The notes under the pieces are model-generated. The model was given only the letters and a program-made list of their open reading frames with translations. It had not been told where the DNA came from and made no database searches. A program made the translations under genes and the position numbers. A DNA stretch of 64,000 nucleotides, taken from positions 1 to 64,000 of the forward strand of contig CAVUWV010000026.1 in assembly GCA_963745075.1 (NCBI GenBank). The letters run 5' to 3'. The stretch is from Candidatus Hydrogenedentota bacterium (GTDB taxonomy: Bacteria; Hydrogenedentota; Hydrogenedentia; Hydrogenedentales; SLHB01). Of the stretch, positions 14,835-23,612 are shown piece after piece (the first letter of the stretch is position 1; every line of letters starts with the position of its first letter).

Positions 14835-17063
14835 TTAACCGCGGCTGCAAATCATCAGGATCGGGCAATCCGTAGCGCGAGCGATCTGCTGTGTGAAATG
14901 ACCCAGCAATTTTTGTCTCCGGCTTAGTCGTTGGACGCCCAGAATAAGGAGGTCGCACGAGGACGCGCGTTTGGCGACCTCGTCGACCGGAGAATCGCTG
15001 GTGACTACCACGATCTCAGTATGGGGAATGGACTGGTCGTGTGCAAAGTGATACAGCTCCCGTTTGATCGCAGCTTGGTCGCGCAACGTGGATTTCGCCG
15101 GCAGGACACGCAGAAACTCGACTTCCCGCTCCGCATCGCGCCCGAGACTGCCGATGAGGCGTGCCAACAACTGGTCGTGTCCCCCGCGCCCGCCAACCGG
15201 AACGAGAATGCGGCGGACGTCCGACAACCGCCATCCCGGTTTGGATCGCAAGACGACGATATCGCATTCGACGGTGCTGATCAGATGTTCGAGAGGAGAT
15301 TCAATCGCGTCATCGCTCAGTTTGCTGAGCCCCAACAGTAAGCTTTCACACGCATGAACCTTCGCGACGCGGCTGATTTCCTCCCAGGGACGCGACGCCA
15401 CCGTGGTCAAGGTCTCAGGGTATATCCCCCGCGCGGCGGACGCTGTGATCGCTTTCCGCAACACAGACTGCGCGTAGTCCAAGGGCTGAGGCACGGCCTC
15501 CGGTTGCCAATTCTCGGGCGCGGCGATGACCGTCAGCAGCACGACACGGCCCACGCCGGGCGGGATCAGCGCGTTTGCGACTTCGATCATGTTCTCCGCG
15601 TTCTCGGGATTGGCGACGGGAACCAGGGCGAGTGGACGCTTTCCGCGAAGCTGAATCACTTCGGGATCGAGGGCCGCGGCAGACGCGTCCACCACACGCG
15701 CACGGCGTGCAAACAGCACGAGGAAGAGGATGCCGCCCACGCCGAGCCAGGTGATCGTAATCGACCCCGCGCTGGGAACGGCGAACCCCTGAAATACCGC
15801 CAGGCCGGCGCAGGCGACGCCACCCAAAATGGGTACCAATGGAAACGCCGGGGACCGGAACGGCGGCGGACGATCGATGCTGCGTTGCCGCACGAGAACG
15901 GCGATCCAGTGCACGATGGCAAAGGTTATCAGAAAGATCAGACTCGACGCTGCACCGGCCGCGGCGACGCTCGGCAAGAGCGCAACCGTTACCGCAACGA
16001 TGATGGCGGTCACCACCACAGCGGTCCTCGGGATCTGCCGCTTGGTGGAAACCAATCCGAGTCTGCGCGGCAACGAGCGATCTCGCGCCATAACCAGGGC
16101 CACCCGTGACGCGGCGAAAAGGTTCGCCTGCAATGCAGACAACATTGACAAAATACCGGCGACCATGACAAGCCAGTATCCGAAGGGTCCAAGGAAATGC
16201 TGTGCGGCGATGGCAACGATCGTTTCCGGGTCGGCCTTACCGGCATCGGCTACGGAGATCCCCGGACTCATGCCCACGGTCGAGATGATAAGAAGAAGCG
16301 GCAGATAAATAAGCAGCGCAATTCCGAGCGAGTAAAACATGGCCCGCGGAAGATTTCGCTCGGGCTGACGCACTTCGCCCGCGACTGCGGCAATGAGATC
16401 GAATCCCTGCAACGCGATAAACGAGAATCCCATCGCGCGCAGCAAACCGACGCCACCCTGTGAGAAGAAGGGGCGCAGTCCCGCAGACCAATCCGTTGGT
16501 GCGCGGCGTGTCATCGCCCAGAGTCCACCCGCAATCACAATGGCGAATACGACGACCTTCGCAACGTTGGTGAATTTGCCGCCGCCCGCGCTTCGGCGCA
16601 GCAGGTCTACCGTGAAGTATGCAGTTGCGCATAGGGCCAGCACCTTGGGTGTCCACGGATTTGCCAGCCAGGCCGGCGCAGTCATTGCCCGCGATGCGTA
16701 GACCTCTGCTATCGCGGCACTGGCGAATGCGCCGAAACCAATTGCGTATAGAACGCCCGCGACGATCGATGCGAACCAGACTACCCAGCCTACGGCAAAG
16801 GCAGTCTCGACGGACAATACTTTTTTCGCGAAGGTGTAGGTGCCACCCGACTGGGGGAACTTGGAAGACATCTCCGCGAAGCTCATCGCGGTCAGGAACG
16901 CAATAATGCCGTTCAGGCCGAAGGCTACGATGGCACTCGGGCCCGTCGCCGCAAATGCGACACCGGCCAAGGCGAGAATTCCCCCGCCAACAATGGCACC
17001 GACACCGACACTTGTTGCGCCGAACAAGCCGATGTGTCGCTGAACGGTATCTCTAGGGGCCAA
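14835..17063 (-). CDS. APC-family amino acid permease fused to universal-stress-protein (USP) domains
   Basis: GVGAIVGGGI, FAEMSSKFPQSGGTY, AGEVRQPERNLPRA; soluble C-terminus LVPVANP...ILVPVGG...LLILG...CPIL. Confidence 0.9.
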   Translation of the reverse strand: MAPRDTVQRHIGLFGATSVGVGAIVGGGILALAGVAFAATGPSAIVAFGLNGIIAFLTAMSFAEMSSKFPQSGGTYTFAKKVLSVETAFAVGWVVWFASIVAGVLYAIGFGAFASAAIAEVYASRAMTAPAWLANPWTPKVLALCATAYFTVDLLRRSAGGGKFTNVAKVVVFAIVIAGGLWAMTRRAPTDWSAGLRPFFSQGGVGLLRAMGFSFIALQGFDLIAAVAGEVRQPERNLPRAMFYSLGIALLIYLPLLLIISTVGMSPGISVADAGKADPETIVAIAAQHFLGPFGYWLVMVAGILSMLSALQANLFAASRVALVMARDRSLPRRLGLVSTKRQIPRTAVVVTAIIVAVTVALLPSVAAAGAASSLIFLITFAIVHWIAVLVRQRSIDRPPPFRSPAFPLVPILGGVACAGLAVFQGFAVPSAGSITITWLGVGGILFLVLFARRARVVDASAAALDPEVIQLRGKRPLALVPVANPENAENMIEVANALIPPGVGRVVLLTVIAAPENWQPEAVPQPLDYAQSVLRKAITASAARGIYPETLTTVASRPWEEISRVAKVHACESLLLGLSKLSDDAIESPLEHLISTVECDIVVLRSKPGWRLSDVRRILVPVGGRGGHDQLLARLIGSLGRDAEREVEFLRVLPAKSTLRDQAAIKRELYHFAHDQSIPHTEIVVVTSDSPVDEVAKRASSCDLLILGVQRLSRRQKLLGHFTQQIARATDCPILMICSRG

Positions 17064-17193
17064 GCGCGTCTCCTTGTAAGATAATTGTCCGGGTTCCGGT
17101 TCGTATCATAACGAATCCATTGCTGGTATACCAATCTTCGGGAGCACATAAGCATTTAACATGATGGAACTTACCCACGCAATTAGAATTTGC

Positions 17194-17222
17194 TTGACAG
17201 GGGTGTCCCTAAAAAGTATAAT
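17194..17222 (+). promoter_or_regulatory. Consensus sigma70 promoter of the Rrf2/NO cluster
   Basis: TTGACA (17194-99), 17-bp spacer, TATAAT (17217-22), 21 bp before the Rrf2 ATG. Confidence 0.88.
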
Positions 17223-17243
17223 CACATGTGAAAAGAGGTTGCT

Positions 17244-17666
17244 ATGCTCTCAAAAACTGCTTTACACGCACTGCACGCTGTGGCCCAGTTGGCCGAACTC
17301 CCGGAAGGCCAGTTCCGCGGGGCGACATCCATTGCCGAGGAAATCGGTGCGCCGGCTAATTACCTGGGCAAGCTGCTCCAGTCCTTGGTTCAGGAAGGGA
17401 TCGTGTATTCCCAGAAGGGCATCGGCGGCGGTTTTCGTTTGGCAAAGAAGGCGTCTTCCATCCCGCTCTACAACGTCATTGAGCCGATCGACCATATCAG
17501 CAAGTGGTCCGGCTGTTTCATGGGACGCAGCCGATGCTCATCGGAGGAGCCTTGCGCGATGCATACCCGGTGGGCGAAGGTGCGAGACGAATACTTTTCG
17601 CTCCTAAAAGAGGCGACGATCGCCGATATCGCATCGGGTAAGAACAGTTTTGCGGTTTCCCCGTAA
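17244..17666 (+). CDS. Rrf2-family Fe-S transcriptional regulator (NsrR/IscR-like)
   Basis: wHTH YLGKLLQSL...SQKGIGGGFRL; three Cys in CFMGRSRCSSEEPCAMH. Confidence 0.93.
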   Translation: MLSKTALHALHAVAQLAELPEGQFRGATSIAEEIGAPANYLGKLLQSLVQEGIVYSQKGIGGGFRLAKKASSIPLYNVIEPIDHISKWSGCFMGRSRCSSEEPCAMHTRWAKVRDEYFSLLKEATIADIASGKNSFAVSP

Positions 17667-17729
17667 GTTCCATATTTTTGTGACACTAAATACGATAAGC
17701 ACATGCGATTATAGAAAGGAGCAAAACCA

Positions 17730-18389
17730 ATGGCATACTCTCCGATTCGTAGCCGCCTAAACAACATTCAATTTCTGGGCCTGCTTGCCTTACCCCTAGT
17801 CCTTTCTATGTCGGCCTTTGCGCATTGCGACACGTTGGACGGACCGGTCGTCACGGACGCGAAAACGGCGTTAGCCGAAAAGAACGTAGAACCCGTGCTG
17901 AAATGGGTCCGCCCTCAAGATGAAGCCGAGATTCGTGAGCTGTTCGCAAAGACCGTGAAGGTACGGGAAAGCGACGCCGAGGTCCGGGAACTGGTGGACC
18001 GGCACTTCTTCGAAACGCTTGTACGCGTCCATCGCGCCGGCGAAGGTGCACCTTTCACGGGACTGAAGCCTGCGGATACCCCGGTAGAACCCGGCATCGA
18101 GGGGGCCGAAGAGGCCTTGGCGACGGGTTCCGACAACGAGCTGGTCACGAATCTCCAGGCTGAACTCGGGAAGGCGCTGAATATGCGCTATTCGCACGTG
18201 CTCGAAGCCAGAGAGCGCTCAGATGAAAGCGTTGAGGCGGGGCGCGCGTACGTCGCCGCCTATGTCGAGTATATCCACTTCGTGGAGCGGCTCCATGAAA
18301 CCATTGCGTCGCCTTCGCACGAGGGCCACGGAGAAGCGCATGAAGGGCCTTCGTCATCGCACGACGAAGACCATGGAGACGGCGCGTGA
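17730..18389 (+). CDS. DUF6448-like exported protein with His-rich tail
   Basis: Signal peptide AFA|HCDTLDGPVV, FFETLVRVHRAGEGAPFTGLKP, GRAYVAAYVEYIHFVE; AAAGGAG RBS. Confidence 0.78.
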   Translation: MAYSPIRSRLNNIQFLGLLALPLVLSMSAFAHCDTLDGPVVTDAKTALAEKNVEPVLKWVRPQDEAEIRELFAKTVKVRESDAEVRELVDRHFFETLVRVHRAGEGAPFTGLKPADTPVEPGIEGAEEALATGSDNELVTNLQAELGKALNMRYSHVLEARERSDESVEAGRAYVAAYVEYIHFVERLHETIASPSHEGHGEAHEGPSSSHDEDHGDGA

Positions 18390-18461: not shown

Positions 18462-20330
18462 ATGAGCACGCCGAAACAAGTGTTGGATACGTTGGGTGAA
18501 GAAACGATGTTGCCGGACCTGTTGAAAGCCGCGCCAAGTGTCCGGCCGGCACTGGACCGGTACGGATTGCGCGGATGCGGTGGCGAGCACGGTCCGATGG
18601 AGACGTTGGGATTCTTCGCGCGGGCCCATGGCGTTCCGGTGGGGCAACTTCTTCAGGATATCCGGGTAAGTCTCACGGCGACAGAAGTGACGACAACGTC
18701 GACGGAATCGTTTTCGGACCAAATCGCTGACACCATTTATCAGCCCTTCTTCAAAGGCGGTATCGCGGTGGCCCTCACACTCGGCGCCGTCTGGGGAGCT
18801 TTCCTTCTGATCCGCATCGCCCTGTCGGGCTCGTTCACCGCGGTGGGGATTCAAGAAATCAACGCCCACGGGCACGCGCAGATCTTTGGCTGGGTGGGGC
18901 TGTTCGTGATGGGCTTCGCCTATCAGGCCTTTCCGCGTTTCAAGCACACGTCCCTCGCCCATCCGCGTATGGCATTGGCCACGATGTGGCTGATGGTGAC
19001 CGGCATCATTCTTCGGTCGTCGAGCCAGGCACTGCTCCCGTACACCCATTGGACCGTCAAGTCGGGCATTTTCGGTTCTCTGCTGGAGATTCTGGCGATT
19101 GGATTGTTTGTGGGCATCATCTGGAAGACGCTGCGCCGGTCCGGGAAACCCTTCGCGTTCTATGACTACTACATCCTGAGCGGGTTGGCCTGGTTCTTCC
19201 TTCAGGCGGTATACGGCAGCATCTACTTCACCGCCACGGCACTGGCCCCAACACGCGACGCGCTCCTGGGACTCGTCTCGACATGGCAGGCCCCACTTCG
19301 GGACATCCAGATCCACGGGTTTGCCATGCTGATGATTCTCGGCGTCAGTCAGCGCATGTTTCACAACTTCTATGGCTTGTCGGCACCCAGCCGGCGGGCG
19401 AGTTTGATCGCCTTGCCGCTCTTGAACGGCGCGGTGATCGGGGAATGCGTGGGATTCATACTGATGCGGACCTCCGGCCATATTTGGACCGCCCTTTGGT
19501 ACGGGTCGGTCATCACGCTCACGGCGACGCTCGCGGTCCTGGTATCGGGCTGGCACATCTACCGGCCCACCGCCGAAGCGGATCGCAGCCTGAAATTCCT
19601 CCGCACGGCCTATCTCTGGCTGTTCGTTTCGCTGACGATGCTCATCGCGCTGCCGCTCTACCAGTTCGGACTGCTGCGCGCCCTCGCCCCGGACAGCGAA
19701 GCGGCACGGATTGGTTTCTCCCACGCTTATTACGGAGCAGGCCGCCACGCGATTACCGTGGGCTTCATCAGCCTGATGATCGTCGGCGTCGCGGCCAAGG
19801 TGGTGCCGACGCTGAAAGGTATTGACGTACGCAGCCTGAACGGACTCTGGGTGCCGTTCATCCTGCTGAACGCGGGGTGCGCCATGCGTGTCGGCTTCCA
19901 GATTCTCACGGATTTCACCGATGTAGCCTTCCCCATTGCCGGGGTGAGTGGCATATTGGAAGTTTCCGCGCTGGCGGTCTGGGGGATCCACTTGTGGTCG
20001 CTGATGAACGCGCGCGTGGGCGCTTCGCCCATGCTGTCCCGGCCCATGACGTTGAAGGCAGGCGAGCCTATCGCTGCACGCAGTGTGGTTGCAGAGGTGC
20101 TCCGGGTTTACCCTGAAACGCTTGAAACATTCTTGAAACACGGATTCAAGCCCCTAGCGAACCCCATGCTCCGGCGCACCGTTGCTGCAACGGTTTCTGT
20201 CGAGGGTGCCGCACGCTTGCTCGATGTTGACCTGGACCATCTCCTGGCCGACTTGAATAGGGCTCGGGTGACACAGGAAGACGACCGAGGTCACCCCGAG
20301 GCCGACGGCCTGACCGTGGACTTGGCCTGA
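18462..20330 (+). CDS. NnrS-like polytopic membrane protein flanked by DUF1858-like domains
   Basis: About 11-12 hydrophobic segments with HGHAQIFGW, IQIHGF, RHAITVGF; soluble N-terminal (LDRYGLRGCGG) and C-terminal (YPETLETFLKHGF) small domains. Confidence 0.75.
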   Translation: MSTPKQVLDTLGEETMLPDLLKAAPSVRPALDRYGLRGCGGEHGPMETLGFFARAHGVPVGQLLQDIRVSLTATEVTTTSTESFSDQIADTIYQPFFKGGIAVALTLGAVWGAFLLIRIALSGSFTAVGIQEINAHGHAQIFGWVGLFVMGFAYQAFPRFKHTSLAHPRMALATMWLMVTGIILRSSSQALLPYTHWTVKSGIFGSLLEILAIGLFVGIIWKTLRRSGKPFAFYDYYILSGLAWFFLQAVYGSIYFTATALAPTRDALLGLVSTWQAPLRDIQIHGFAMLMILGVSQRMFHNFYGLSAPSRRASLIALPLLNGAVIGECVGFILMRTSGHIWTALWYGSVITLTATLAVLVSGWHIYRPTAEADRSLKFLRTAYLWLFVSLTMLIALPLYQFGLLRALAPDSEAARIGFSHAYYGAGRHAITVGFISLMIVGVAAKVVPTLKGIDVRSLNGLWVPFILLNAGCAMRVGFQILTDFTDVAFPIAGVSGILEVSALAVWGIHLWSLMNARVGASPMLSRPMTLKAGEPIAARSVVAEVLRVYPETLETFLKHGFKPLANPMLRRTVAATVSVEGAARLLDVDLDHLLADLNRARVTQEDDRGHPEADGLTVDLA

Positions 20331-20400: not shown

Positions 20401-20498
20401 AGGGATCGGCTCTTCAACCGTAGCTGAATTGGGACGGAGTCGCCGCAGCCACCGCCGGTAGACGATTTGTGCAGTATCGAACGAGGGAGGAGTCACGT

Positions 20499-22811
20499 AT
20501 GAATTATAGAAGGTTGTGGGCTGCGCTGGCCACGGTCATCGTGGTGTCGTTTGCCGTGCTGCTGTATTTCGGAAGGGACATCTACCGCAAGATCCCGCCC
20601 ATACCCGATACCGTCGCCACGGCGGACGGTACGGTGATCTTCACGGGCGACGATATCCGCAATGGGCAGAATGCGTGGCAATCGGTGGGCGGCCAGGAAA
20701 TGGGCACGGTCTGGGGCCATGGTTCCTACGTTGCGCCGGACTGGTCGGCGGATTGGCTGCACCGGGAAGCCGAGTGGCTGCTCGATCATTGGGCAACGCA
20801 AGACTACGGCGTAAAGAGCTACGCCGATTTGAATGACGAACAAGCAGCGGCATTGAAAGCGCGCGTGAAGGACGAAATCCGGACGAACACGTACGATCCC
20901 ACGACGAATTCGATTGTCGTCTCCCCCACCCGCGCGCAAGCCATCGCCGCCGTGAGCGAGCACTACGAGAAACTCTTCAGTGGCGATCCGGAACTCAACG
21001 ACCTTCGGGAAGCGTACGCGATTCCGAAAAACGTGATGCCCGATCCGGAGCGGCGTGCAGAATTAAGCGCCTTCTACTTCTGGACCGCTTGGGCCTGTGG
21101 CACGAATCGTCCTGGCGAGGCGCATACCTATACGCAGAACTGGCCGCCCGACCCGCTCATTGACAACACGCCCACGGGCTCGATCGTCGTATGGTCGGTC
21201 GTCAGTTTCGTGCTGTTGCTGGCTGGTGTTGGCGCGCTGGCGTGGTACTACGCCATTCTCAAGCACAAAGAACACGATGAACTCGAGCCGCCCGCGGTCG
21301 ATCCCTTGCTGGCCCTCGACCCGACGCCGTCTATGAAGGCGACACTCAAATACTTCTGGGTGGTCGTTGCCTTGATTGTGTTTCAGGTGGCCATGGGCGC
21401 GGTGACGGCGCACTACGGGGTGGAAGGCTCGGGATTCTACGGGATACCACTCGCGGAGATTCTCCCTTACGCAGTCACGCGAACCTGGCACACGCAGCTC
21501 GCGATCTTCTGGATTGCGACGGCCTGGCTGGCAACGGGACTCTTCATTGCGCCCGCGGTTTCGGGACATGAACCGAAGTTCCAGCGTTTGGGCGTGAATG
21601 TGCTGTTCGGCGCGTTGTTGGTTATCGTCGTCGGTTCCATGTTCGGGACCTGGTACGCCACGCGGCAGAAGATGGGCCTGACCATGAATTTCTGGTTCGG
21701 CCATCAGGGTTACGAGTACGTCGATCTCGGGCGCTTCTGGCAGTACTTCCTTTTCGCCGGGCTGTTCATATGGCTCGGTCTGATGGGACGAGCGCTTTGG
21801 CCCGCCCTGAAGCAACCCGGGCCAAACCGGCATCTGCTCACCCTGTTTTTCATCTCGAGCCTGGCGATTGCCGTGTTCTACGGCGCCGGTCTCACGTGGG
21901 GTCAGCACACGCACCTCGCCATCGCCGAATACTGGCGCTGGTGGGTGGTCCATCTGTGGGTGGAAGGCTTCTTCGAAGTGTTTGCCACGGTGGTCATCGC
22001 GTTCCTGTTCACACGGATGGGCCTATTGAAAGTATCGACCGCCACCGGCGCGGTGTTGTTCGCCACGAGTATCTTCCTCGCGGGCGGCATCATCGGGACC
22101 TTCCACCACCTGTACTTTACCGGAACGCCGACGGCCGTACTGGCGCTGGGCTCCGTGTTCAGCGCGCTCGAAGTGGTACCGCTGGTCCTGATTGGCTTTG
22201 AGGCCTACGAGAACCTGACGTTGAGTAAGGCGCGGCCGTGGGTAACCGCTTACAAGTGGCCCATCTATTGCTTCGTGGCGGTGGCCTTCTGGAACCTGGT
22301 GGGCGCGGGAATCTTCGGGTTCCTGATCAATCCGCCGATTGCCCTCTATTACATGCAGGGACTCAATACGACGGCCGTGCACGGCCACACGGCGCTCTTC
22401 GGCGTGTACGGCATGCTCGGCATCGGCTTGACGCTCTTCTGCCTCAAGGGTCTCGCGGCGCGTAACGTCTGGAAAACGTCGACCCTGTCCTTCGCGTTCT
22501 GGTCGATCAATATCGGCCTCGCACTGATGGTCCTGCTGAGCGACCTGCCGCGCGGCCTGATGCAGGCTTGGGCGAGCGTGAATGATGGCATGTGGTACGC
22601 CCGGTCCGCCGAGTTCATGGGCACGGGTCTCATGGACACCCTGCGCTGGATGCGCATCATCGGCGACAGCATCTTCGCCGTTGGCGTGCTTGCGTTGGGT
22701 TGGTTCGTGCTGGGACTCAAGACGGGCTGGTCTGTCACCAGCGAGTTGGATCCCGCAATGCAACAGGAACCGGCGGCGCGGATACCGGAGGCGGTTACGG
22801 AACGTAGCTGA
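20499..22811 (+). CDS. norZ: Quinol-dependent nitric oxide reductase (qNor)
   Basis: WGHGSYVAPDWSADWLHRE, RTWHTQLAIFW, GYEYVDLGR, WWVVHLWVEGFFEVF, GTFHHLY, SALEVVPL, HGHTALFGVYG; GGAGGAG RBS. Confidence 0.96.
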   Translation: MNYRRLWAALATVIVVSFAVLLYFGRDIYRKIPPIPDTVATADGTVIFTGDDIRNGQNAWQSVGGQEMGTVWGHGSYVAPDWSADWLHREAEWLLDHWATQDYGVKSYADLNDEQAAALKARVKDEIRTNTYDPTTNSIVVSPTRAQAIAAVSEHYEKLFSGDPELNDLREAYAIPKNVMPDPERRAELSAFYFWTAWACGTNRPGEAHTYTQNWPPDPLIDNTPTGSIVVWSVVSFVLLLAGVGALAWYYAILKHKEHDELEPPAVDPLLALDPTPSMKATLKYFWVVVALIVFQVAMGAVTAHYGVEGSGFYGIPLAEILPYAVTRTWHTQLAIFWIATAWLATGLFIAPAVSGHEPKFQRLGVNVLFGALLVIVVGSMFGTWYATRQKMGLTMNFWFGHQGYEYVDLGRFWQYFLFAGLFIWLGLMGRALWPALKQPGPNRHLLTLFFISSLAIAVFYGAGLTWGQHTHLAIAEYWRWWVVHLWVEGFFEVFATVVIAFLFTRMGLLKVSTATGAVLFATSIFLAGGIIGTFHHLYFTGTPTAVLALGSVFSALEVVPLVLIGFEAYENLTLSKARPWVTAYKWPIYCFVAVAFWNLVGAGIFGFLINPPIALYYMQGLNTTAVHGHTALFGVYGMLGIGLTLFCLKGLAARNVWKTSTLSFAFWSINIGLALMVLLSDLPRGLMQAWASVNDGMWYARSAEFMGTGLMDTLRWMRIIGDSIFAVGVLALGWFVLGLKTGWSVTSELDPAMQQEPAARIPEAVTERS

Positions 22812-22892
22812 ATTCGGATTCGTAGCACGTGTGGTCCTGTATTCGAAGCCCCCAAGGGCACAGTGAAGAATAGAGTAAGAGGAGTTAAAGAT

Positions 22893-23612
22893 ATGACAAC
22901 CATTTCACCGGAGATCACAATTGGCCAACTGGTCACGGAGCGGCCGAGCCGGTCGCGGGTATTCGAGAAGCTGGGGATCGATTACTGCTGCGGCGGGAAG
23001 AAATCTATCGCCGAAGTGTGTGAGAAGAAACAGATCGATCCCGCGACGTTGATCGATGTCCTCGATGCCGAAGCGGCCGATGCCCCCGAGGATGGTCCGA
23101 ACGTGAGCGATATGGCCCTGTCGGATCTGGCGGATCATATCGTCGCGACGCATCACGCCTATTTGCGCACGGAACTGCCGCGCCTAGGGAAGATGGCGCA
23201 ACGGGTGGCGAAGGTCCACGGCGACAAGGACGACCGGTTGCAAGCAGTGAGCCAGACCTTCGATGCGTTTACGGCCGAACTCGATTCGCACATGGCCAAG
23301 GAGGAGAACGTGCTGTTCCCGGCCATCCGACTGGTGGATCGGGCTGACCAGATGCCCTCGCTCCCCTTTGGCCGTGTGGCCAACCCCATCCACTGTATGG
23401 AACAGGAGCACGACAACGCGGGGGCCGCGCTGGAACGTATGCGCACCCTCACCGATGGATTCACGCCGCCGGACTGGGCCTGCAACACCTACCGCGCGCT
23501 GTTGGACGGACTTCATGAGCTGGAGTTGGACATGCACCAGCACGTCCACAAGGAGAACAATGTGCTCTTTCCTGGAATCATTGAGCGTGAAGAGCAACTC
23601 TTGAGCGCCTGA
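22893..23612 (+). CDS. ric: Iron-sulfur cluster repair di-iron protein (Ric/YtfE/ScdA)
   Basis: GIDYCCGG, HIVATHHAYL, HMAKEENVLFP, MEQEHD, ACNTY, HVHKENNVLFP. Confidence 0.95.
   Translation: MTTISPEITIGQLVTERPSRSRVFEKLGIDYCCGGKKSIAEVCEKKQIDPATLIDVLDAEAADAPEDGPNVSDMALSDLADHIVATHHAYLRTELPRLGKMAQRVAKVHGDKDDRLQAVSQTFDAFTAELDSHMAKEENVLFPAIRLVDRADQMPSLPFGRVANPIHCMEQEHDNAGAALERMRTLTDGFTPPDWACNTYRALLDGLHELELDMHQHVHKENNVLFPGIIEREEQLLSA

Follow-up and report, generated by a model that had tools for sequence, protein, structure and literature searches.

What does a small protein, predicted to be exported, contribute to a nitric oxide (NO) stress operon, and does its likeness to nickel superoxide dismutase (Ni-SOD) reflect kinship or shared chemistry? 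The question arises for the gene at 17730..18389 (+) of a 64,000-nucleotide stretch of a Candidatus Hydrogenedentota genome (GenBank assembly GCA_963745075.1, contig CAVUWV010000026.1, positions 1 to 64,000 of the forward strand; hereafter the window), which starts with ATG and encodes 219 amino acids. An earlier note on this DNA, made from its letters alone, had placed the protein near the family DUF6448 and pointed out that its predicted mature N-terminus begins His-Cys-Asp, resembling the nickel hook of Ni-SOD. We favor, at about an even chance, the view that DUF6448 is an exported, signal peptidase I-cleaved periplasmic protein with a single metal site that acts in the NO-stress response. 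New here are a secreted subfamily tied to NO-stress genes, its gene fusions, and a leaderless subfamily that starts MPPHCD and is found beside metal exporters.

A conserved His-Cys-Asp at the predicted cleavage site

The assignment to DUF6448 was correct: residues 37-184 match PF20046 over the entire profile (positions 1-147 of 147) with 199.6 bits against a cutoff of 27 (E = 3e-59), while none of the NCBIfam models match the protein. A literature search on "DUF6448" found no paper naming the family, and nothing naming it was found in the literature on periplasmic proteins of NsrR regulons or on Ni-SOD signal peptides in Planctomycetes.

Residues 1-31 (17730..17822, +) form a predicted Sec signal peptide, MAYSPIRSRLNNIQFLGLLALPLVLSMSAFA, that ends in A-F-A in keeping with the -3/-1 rule. 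The predicted mature protein begins HCDTLDGPVV, and its His1-Cys2-Asp3 (precursor residues 32-34, codons 17823..17831, +, with His at 17823-17825) constitute a near-invariant motif of candidate metal ligands. Throughout, leaders were judged by rule (basic n-region, hydrophobic core, and residues at -3 and -1), and cleavage is a prediction; the window leader has basic residues at R7 and R9, a best 10-residue Kyte-Doolittle mean of 2.68, and Ala at both -3 and -1. The junction that the earlier note had placed between AFA and H-C-D-T-L-D-G-P is present, and a signal peptidase-type site is predicted directly before His in essentially every secreted member of the family.

Two other interpretations of the leader were rejected. 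A lipobox has the form L-[AS]-[GA]-C with Cys at +1; here the sequence reads S-A-F-A-H-C, with His before Cys, and the cut falls at AxA/H (a slash marks the predicted cut) across the family, which rules out a bacterial lipoprotein. Tat export is also out, with no twin-arginine motif in the window leader or in the other leaders inspected.

DUF6448 is a large family spread over many phyla: clustering at 90% identity leaves at least 7996 clusters, and clustering at 50% leaves 1748. We took as representatives the best 150 of the 1748 clusters at 50% identity, which are 38 to 54% identical to the query. A hydrophobic leader, a small-x-small tripeptide, and HCD follow one another in all 120 of the 120 best homologues. 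HCD lies at an AxA junction in 143 of the 150 best representatives (143 of the 146 that can be read), as HCDxxxGP in 142 and as HCDAIDGV in one; the other seven comprise three N-terminally truncated sequences, one with a garbled start (P0268), and three with substitutions (PCD, QCN, and YFD). In the YFD variant (P0267), R71, H152, and all tail His are gone as well. Of 263 motif-bearing members, 260 have A, G, or S at position -1, 259 have a hydrophobic core, and 250 have K or R in the n-region. Such conservation places the HCD motif far beyond chance, and His1 and Cys2, on whose conservation the earlier note had staked its proposal, are near-invariant. The arrangement that characterizes secreted metalloproteins with an N-terminal His, a signal peptide directly before a conserved His1, is thus found in DUF6448 at the sequence level.

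Conservation extends into the body of the protein. Residues H1, C2, D3, G7, P8, L26, E64, R68, H70, R71, E74, T79, G80, A98, and R141 are invariant in both the secreted and the leaderless subfamilies; H70, a candidate for the second His of a histidine brace, is among them. In 167 of 170 sequences, the mature core contains no Cys other than Cys2 (tail and Cys counts cover only the 170 of 270 sequences caught by the motif pattern). Tails rich in His are characteristic of the family: His accounts for 15.8% of tail residues compared to 3.2% of core residues, and 150 of 163 tails contain at least three His. The His/acid-rich tail of the window protein is present as first described, with the segment ASPSHEGHGEAHEGPSSSHDEDHGDGA and stop codon at 18309..18389 (+) and a C-terminus that reads SPSHEGHGEAHEGPSSSHDEDHGDGA.

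The description of the remaining protein as helical also held. An AlphaFold2 model built from a 53-sequence alignment (mean pLDDT, 90.7) has seven helices, at mature residues 8-19, 23-26, 31-48, 52-73, 90-101, 105-131, and 137-162. The PF20046 match, the model, and the invariant residues together outline a helical core at mature residues 4-162 (17832..18308, +), and model confidence is low from about mature residue 163. The model pairs residue 4 with residue 82, in the conserved loop after H70 and E74, through a beta-bridge.

Part of this record would also suit a protein that binds no metal, in which Cys2, activated by the adjacent His and the N-terminus, traps NO-derived species (by S-nitrosation or by scavenging of peroxynitrite or N2O3) or senses redox state. 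One near-invariant Cys beside a His in an exported protein, alone in nearly every core, is what such a thiol would look like, and the NO-stress context described below agrees with it. However, it would leave unexplained the His-rich tail, the invariant H70, E64, and E74, and the links to CDF and VIT1 proteins, and, because no periplasmic reductant is evident, a stoichiometric trap would presumably be spent after one turnover. We consider a metal-free thiol improbable.

Nitric oxide-related neighbors and gene fusions

A scan of species-representative genomes yielded 80 DUF6448 loci, including loci from Hydrogenedentota, Acidobacteriota, Verrucomicrobiota, Planctomycetota, Nitrospirota, Desulfobacterota, Proteobacteria, and Bacteroidota, and the gene itself was located by pattern in 73 of them. 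Culturable carriers among them include Desulforhopalus singaporensis DSM 12130 (L041) and Lysobacter sp. M2-1 (L059). At least one NO-related gene lies within 4.5 kb in 29 of these 73 loci: quinol-dependent nitric oxide reductase (qNor) in 14, the di-iron iron-sulfur cluster repair protein RIC in 10, hemerythrin in 10, Rrf2 in 5, HPP in 5, Hcp in 3, and protoglobin in 3. An NO-linked gene is the immediate neighbor in 16 of 73 loci, often across a gap of a few bases (Pfam scan of 137 immediate neighbors). The earlier note had connected the protein with NO biology from the window; together with the fusions described below, these loci show that the link is real and reaches well beyond the window. 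Within Hydrogenedentota, DUF6448 has a patchy distribution (15 of 135 genomes), and qNor is found in 11 of the 15 genomes with DUF6448 versus 26 of the 120 without it, a co-occurrence that is at most suggestive because related genomes are not independent. Overall, the NO context is strong enough to assign a physiological setting to the secreted branch, not a reaction. The gene order NorB, DUF6448, and a protoglobin-PsiE fusion is fixed in two metagenome-assembled genomes, one from Betaproteobacteria (L057) and one from Nitrospirae (L060); in the latter, HPP (nitrite-transporter-like) and CBS genes lie nearby.

Fusions connect DUF6448 to the same set of functions. Fourteen protein clusters join it to hemerythrin, RIC, or rubrerythrin, and two join it to qNor. 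The order DUF6448, His-rich tail, and hemerythrin was verified here in six clusters and is indicated by precomputed labels only in two more; three clusters continue from DUF6448 into an entire RIC, two continue into rubrerythrin, and one places hemerythrin ahead of DUF6448. In both qNor clusters, qNor is followed by a leader-like segment and AxA/HCD in a single reading frame. A C-terminally extended form of DUF6448 is also encoded in genome DNA, at locus L042. Four further clusters are fusions to CDF, in which MPPHCD is internal and comes right after the cytoplasmic domain, without a hydrophobic segment.

We set several other apparent fusions aside. The sequences of P0292 (CopD) and P0271 look as if a frameshift had been translated. 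In P0278, where SCO1 is merged upstream of DUF6448, in P0274 (Rce1-like), and in P0257 (HPF), the DUF6448 leader is complete, whether or not an internal start is also present, and two neighboring genes may have been called as a single one.

One hemerythrin subtype, FVDRCHHAKEE...HEKYH, occurs in both fused and unfused forms. It is fused behind leader-bearing DUF6448 in P0133, P0143, P0158, P0175, P0208, and P0216, and it stands alone, leaderless, just downstream of DUF6448 at L046, L074, and L075. The unfused DUF6448/hemerythrin pair is predicted to be split between compartments and the fused pair to be together, a mismatch between the two forms.

Two other roles could be drawn from these associations. 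In the first, which the earlier note had mentioned for qNor, the protein would be an accessory subunit or metallochaperone in the periplasm, supplying qNor or NnrS with metal or docking on one of them. NnrS and qNor are the next genes after DUF6448 in the window, qNor is the immediate neighbor in 6 or 7 of 73 loci and accompanies DUF6448 in most of the Hydrogenedentota genomes that have it, two clusters carry the qNor fusion described above, and SCO1, a copper chaperone, is merged upstream once. However, 59 of 73 loci have no qNor within 4.5 kb, no qNor was seen in 4 of the 15 DUF6448 genomes (completeness, 78 to 98%), the commonest fusion partners are soluble di-iron proteins rather than qNor, and the leaderless subfamily has no NO-related neighbor at all. 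A complex prediction for full-length qNor with the mature DUF6448 core scored 0.00 and, run without controls, is evidence neither way. We regard a chaperone or subunit role as unlikely.

In the second, the protein would be a general periplasmic buffer for heavy metals (Zn, Cu, or Ni) tied to efflux, and its NO link would arise indirectly, from metal that NO releases. All three residues of the HCD motif are classical ligands of Zn. TetR is encoded directly upstream in 8 of 73 loci, an HlyD/CusB-like adaptor directly downstream in 4 of 73, and efflux-type genes (TetR, HlyD, ABC, and RND) within 4.5 kb in 21 of 73; the CDF fusions and a single immediate neighbor of the Metal_resist type fit the same picture. 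Against this, NO-related neighbors are found at more loci than efflux neighbors (29 versus 21), the fusions are chiefly to di-iron NO-stress proteins, and the window operon contains no efflux gene. A general buffer, like a chaperone, seems to us an unlikely explanation.

A leaderless branch of the family

A search with the DUF6448 part of the CDF fusions uncovered a large branch of proteins of about 175 amino acids (P0293-P0412; loci L101-L180). Among 120 matches, 118 start with MPPHCD, one starts with VPPHCD, and one is truncated, and the few named members are Actinobacteria. MPP directly precedes HCD in 79 of 79 metagenome loci; we set the start at the Met of MPPHCD because the in-frame upstream extensions look noncoding and are high in GC. 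The commonest neighbor is a VIT1-family exporter, upstream in 5 of 76 loci, and ACS/CODH adjoins the gene in 3 of 76.

Because they are invariant across both branches, HCD and the helix-4 residues can be taken as the family core. The distance of HCD from the N-terminus is constrained in both branches, and the two prolines may either have a structural role or mark a defined processing step, given that Met-Pro-Pro is invariant. Given this branch and the internal motif of the CDF fusions, a free alpha-amine on His1 is not universal in the family. The earlier note had described the site as processing dependent; this description suits the secreted branch, with its AxA/HCD junction, and may not hold for the leaderless branch or the CDF fusions. 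In this respect the MPPHCD branch supplies a natural control for what the free N-terminal amine does.

A candidate metal site in the nitric oxide-stress response

In the explanation that we favor, export and cleavage by signal peptidase I would make His1-Cys2-Asp3 the first residues of the protein, and this tip, likely with His70, Glu74, and Glu64 of helix 4, would form one metal site that serves the NO-stress response in the periplasm. Our preferred guess is a mononuclear nonheme site that, outside the cytoplasm, would bind NO or would buffer iron that has been nitrosylated or released, and a His-rich tail that would serve as a capture arm. We infer a metal site from the HCD tip, the His and Glu residues of helix 4, the single Cys, the His-rich tail, the links to metal exporters, and the precedent of other N-terminal His proteins (PMC12537917, in the portion of the article available). 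The VIT1 and CDF neighbors and the fusions to di-iron proteins would make iron the first guess, with a probability that nonetheless stays short of one-half; nickel and copper are each clearly less probable and about equal to each other, zinc would come somewhat behind them, and a site with no metal would be last.

Several observations weigh against this explanation. More than half of the secreted-branch loci (44 of 73) have no NO-related gene within 4.5 kb, and 21 of 73 have TetR with HlyD, ABC, or RND efflux genes instead. In the leaderless branch, NO-related neighbors were found in 0 of 76 loci, and therefore a role in NO stress may be a specialization of the secreted branch and not the core chemistry of the family. 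The MPPHCD branch and the CDF fusions also indicate that the motif could work without a free amine on His1. The stand-alone hemerythrins downstream of DUF6448 are predicted to be cytoplasmic because they have no leader, which fits co-regulation better than direct contact. Proximity of H1, C2, and D3 to H70 and E74 is a supposition from one beta-bridge of the model together with conservation, and cleavage, metal binding, ligand identity, and activity are all predictions. Finally, divergent members may lack HCD, since the representatives are the best 150 of 1748 clusters and the Pfam model starts at mature residue 6.

The combination of HCD at a signal peptidase site, a single Cys, and fusions to NO-stress di-iron proteins and qNor makes for a sharp hypothesis. 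If it is right, the NO defense of environmental denitrifiers and anaerobes gains a component in the periplasm, and DUF6448 provides a second, independent case of the N-terminal His-Cys metal chemistry known from Ni-SOD. A bolder version, which we think rather unlikely, is that the family represents a very widespread, unrecognized class of metalloproteins that reached a Ni-SOD-like His-Cys chelate independently, with His70 and Glu74 replacing Cys6, and whose redox metal destroys or sequesters periplasmic NO-derived species (NO, superoxide or peroxynitrite precursors, or nitrosyl-iron). Were that true, DUF6448 would be a missing extracytoplasmic arm of the nitrosative-stress response, working with the fused di-iron hemerythrin/RIC module.

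The operon in the window

In the window, DUF6448 is the second of five genes that make up a nitric oxide-stress operon: Rrf2, DUF6448, NnrS, qNor, and RIC. A predicted sigma-70-like promoter at 17194..17222 (+), with TTGACA and TATAAT separated by a 17-nucleotide spacer (12 of 12 consensus positions), lies upstream of the Rrf2 gene and is the likely start of the operon. Read from the sequence, a perfect 10-bp palindrome, TCACATGTGA, at 17222..17231 (no strand assigned) overlaps the end of the -10 box and is a candidate operator for the Rrf2 regulator; an inverted-repeat search of 17050-17760 reported just a weak palindrome within the Rrf2 gene and not TCACATGTGA. A related hexamer, CACATG, occurs in the spacer between Rrf2 and DUF6448 (about 17700-17705) and is a possible operator site.

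The first gene (17244..17666, +) encodes an Rrf2-family (NsrR/IscR-like) regulator of 140 amino acids (PF02082, E = 4.3e-28; TIGR00738, E = 1.7e-29), which falls under the cutoff of all equivalog models, that for NsrR among them. DUF6448 follows, with a Shine-Dalgarno sequence, AAGGAG, read at 17716-17721 (+), 8 nucleotides 5' of its start codon. The third gene (18462..20330, +) encodes a 622-amino-acid NnrS-type membrane protein (PF05940, E = 7.6e-16) with a C-terminal DUF1858 domain (PF08984, E = 6.6e-19, residues 542-595). Its residues 14-67 give a sub-threshold match to TIGR03980, the "hybrid cluster protein-associated redox disulfide domain" (39.6 versus 44.95 bits); a C-terminal DUF1858 together with this sub-threshold N-terminal match is an unusual architecture for NnrS. 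The fourth gene (20469..22811, +) encodes qNor, at 780 amino acids (PF22085, E = 3.3e-72; PF00115, E = 8e-56), and the fifth (22863..23612, +) encodes RIC/YtfE/ScdA, at 249 amino acids (TIGR03652, E = 1.6e-73, 247 versus 204.7 bits; also PF04405 and PF01814). No terminators were predicted on the + strand between the five genes. Elsewhere in the genome is a second qNor-type gene (G000:C4:47120-47614, +), with a NorB cytochrome c-like domain (E = 3.5e-54).

Relation to nickel superoxide dismutase

The proposed resemblance to the Ni-SOD nickel hook stands at three positions, and neither sequence, profile, nor fold reveals kinship. The hook motif is H-C-x-x-P-C-G-x-Y; the window protein reads H-C-D-T-L-D-G-P-V and matches at H1, C2, and G7 only. 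When the window protein was compared with Pfam at E values up to 10, PF20046 was the only match and Sod_Ni (PF09055) did not appear, and hhalign of 53 DUF6448 sequences against 14 Hydrogenedentota Ni-SODs returned a probability of 0.14% (E = 0.42) over 11 aligned columns. As in Ni-SOD, removal of the leader would leave His first (AFA/H), at the level of sequence and predicted cleavage only.

In Ni-SOD the N2S2 ligand set comprises His1, Cys2, and Cys6 (PMC5722923), and both sulfur donors, Cys2 and Cys6, are required (PMC5722923 and PMC12291696; these statements are limited to the portions of the two articles available). The earlier note had suggested Asp6 in place of Cys6. Position 6 turned out to be variable in DUF6448: among 142 representatives it is D in 94, N in 15, E in 11, A in 5, S in 4, G in 3, T in 3, and R in 2, with five more residues once each. 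With no conserved ligand at this position, an N2S2 site of the Ni-SOD type cannot form.

Structure-based searches, which the earlier note had advised, led no closer to Ni-SOD. A search of PDB chain sequences with the single protein and with a profile gave nothing below an E value of 0.5, and Foldseek against PDB with the whole model and with residues 1-102 gave no match at E ≤ 0.001. In a wide VIA-align search, the whole model reached a best Z of 7.9 over 62 residues, confined to the helical hairpin 103-165, and residues 1-102 reached a best Z of 5.5 over 68 residues, to TetR-type helices; these values are within the range common for helical proteins. Ni-SOD is not among the matches listed in the four fold searches (whole model and residues 1-102), where only generic helical pieces appear, and these scores leave the fold undecided. 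The ESM Atlas returned only DUF6448 clusters and, once these were excluded, no usable match.

The genome of the window has a true Ni-SOD of its own (G000:C10:474426-474818, -; locus L085 1495-1977; PF09055, E = 1.3e-31), with a Sec-like leader that ends TFA/HCQIPCGIY. A Sec-like leader ending in AxA is present in 17 of the 17 Ni-SODs extracted from the phylum, in which H1, C2, P5, C6, G7, I8, and Y9 are invariant. The surroundings of the Ni-SOD gene in this genome, searched to about 1.5 kb, showed no S26/S24 (SodX-like) peptidase. Because the same genome carries a true Ni-SOD with a similar leader and no homology is detectable, the likeness at H1, C2, and G7 is best read as probable convergence on an N-terminal His-Cys chelate.

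We also weighed whether DUF6448 could be a functional analogue, that is, a periplasmic nickel enzyme that dismutates superoxide at His1 and Cys2 and thereby prevents the formation of peroxynitrite from NO and superoxide. H1, C2, and G7 coincide with hook positions that are invariant in the Ni-SODs of the phylum, the leader is of the same type as that of the Ni-SOD in this genome, an NO operon would suit peroxynitrite prevention, and the leaderless form adjoins a nickel enzyme, ACS/CODH, at a few loci. His-rich tails, moreover, are typical of nickel-handling proteins. Yet Cys6 is missing from a position that varies freely, and with it one of the two sulfurs that Ni-SOD needs; P5 and Y9 are missing too; the profile comparisons were negative; and the organism already owns a Ni-SOD. 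Dismutation by a nickel site is in our judgment as improbable as a metal-free thiol.

Comparison with known systems

With Ni-SOD, then, DUF6448 shares a His-Cys start after leader removal, Gly7, a helical body, and the AxA-type leader of the Ni-SODs of the phylum. It differs in lacking Cys6, Pro5, and Tyr9, in its size (a core of about 160 residues with seven helices, versus about 117 to 130 residues in Ni-SOD), in additional invariant His, Glu, and Arg residues of the body, in its His-rich tail, and in its NO-stress context.

RIC/YtfE/ScdA and the hemerythrin-like proteins share operons with DUF6448, presumably share its regulon, and account, with rubrerythrin, for the 14 di-iron fusion clusters. 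They are cytoplasmic four-helix di-iron proteins with no sequence similarity to DUF6448, which is leader bearing and has other conserved residues; they are partners of DUF6448, not relatives.

Another parallel is the "signal strapping" class (the Ni-binding DUF4198, DUF6702, and Ang-1/2, and also the histidine braces of CopC and LPMO), which, like DUF6448, has a conserved His directly after the signal peptide. In DUF4198, DUF6702, and Ang proteins, cleavage of the signal peptide unmasks a metal-chelating N-terminal His (PMC12537917, in the portion available); DUF6448 is not mentioned in the text or in five supplements of that article. The lack of an assigned function and metal-related neighbor genes are further points in common. 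Unlike DUF6448, the families of this class lack a Cys at position 2 and fold as beta-sandwiches or otherwise, and the leaderless MPPHCD branch further sets DUF6448 apart from them. His1 is conserved in 65 to 79% of the members of those families (PMC12537917, same portion) and in about 98% of DUF6448.

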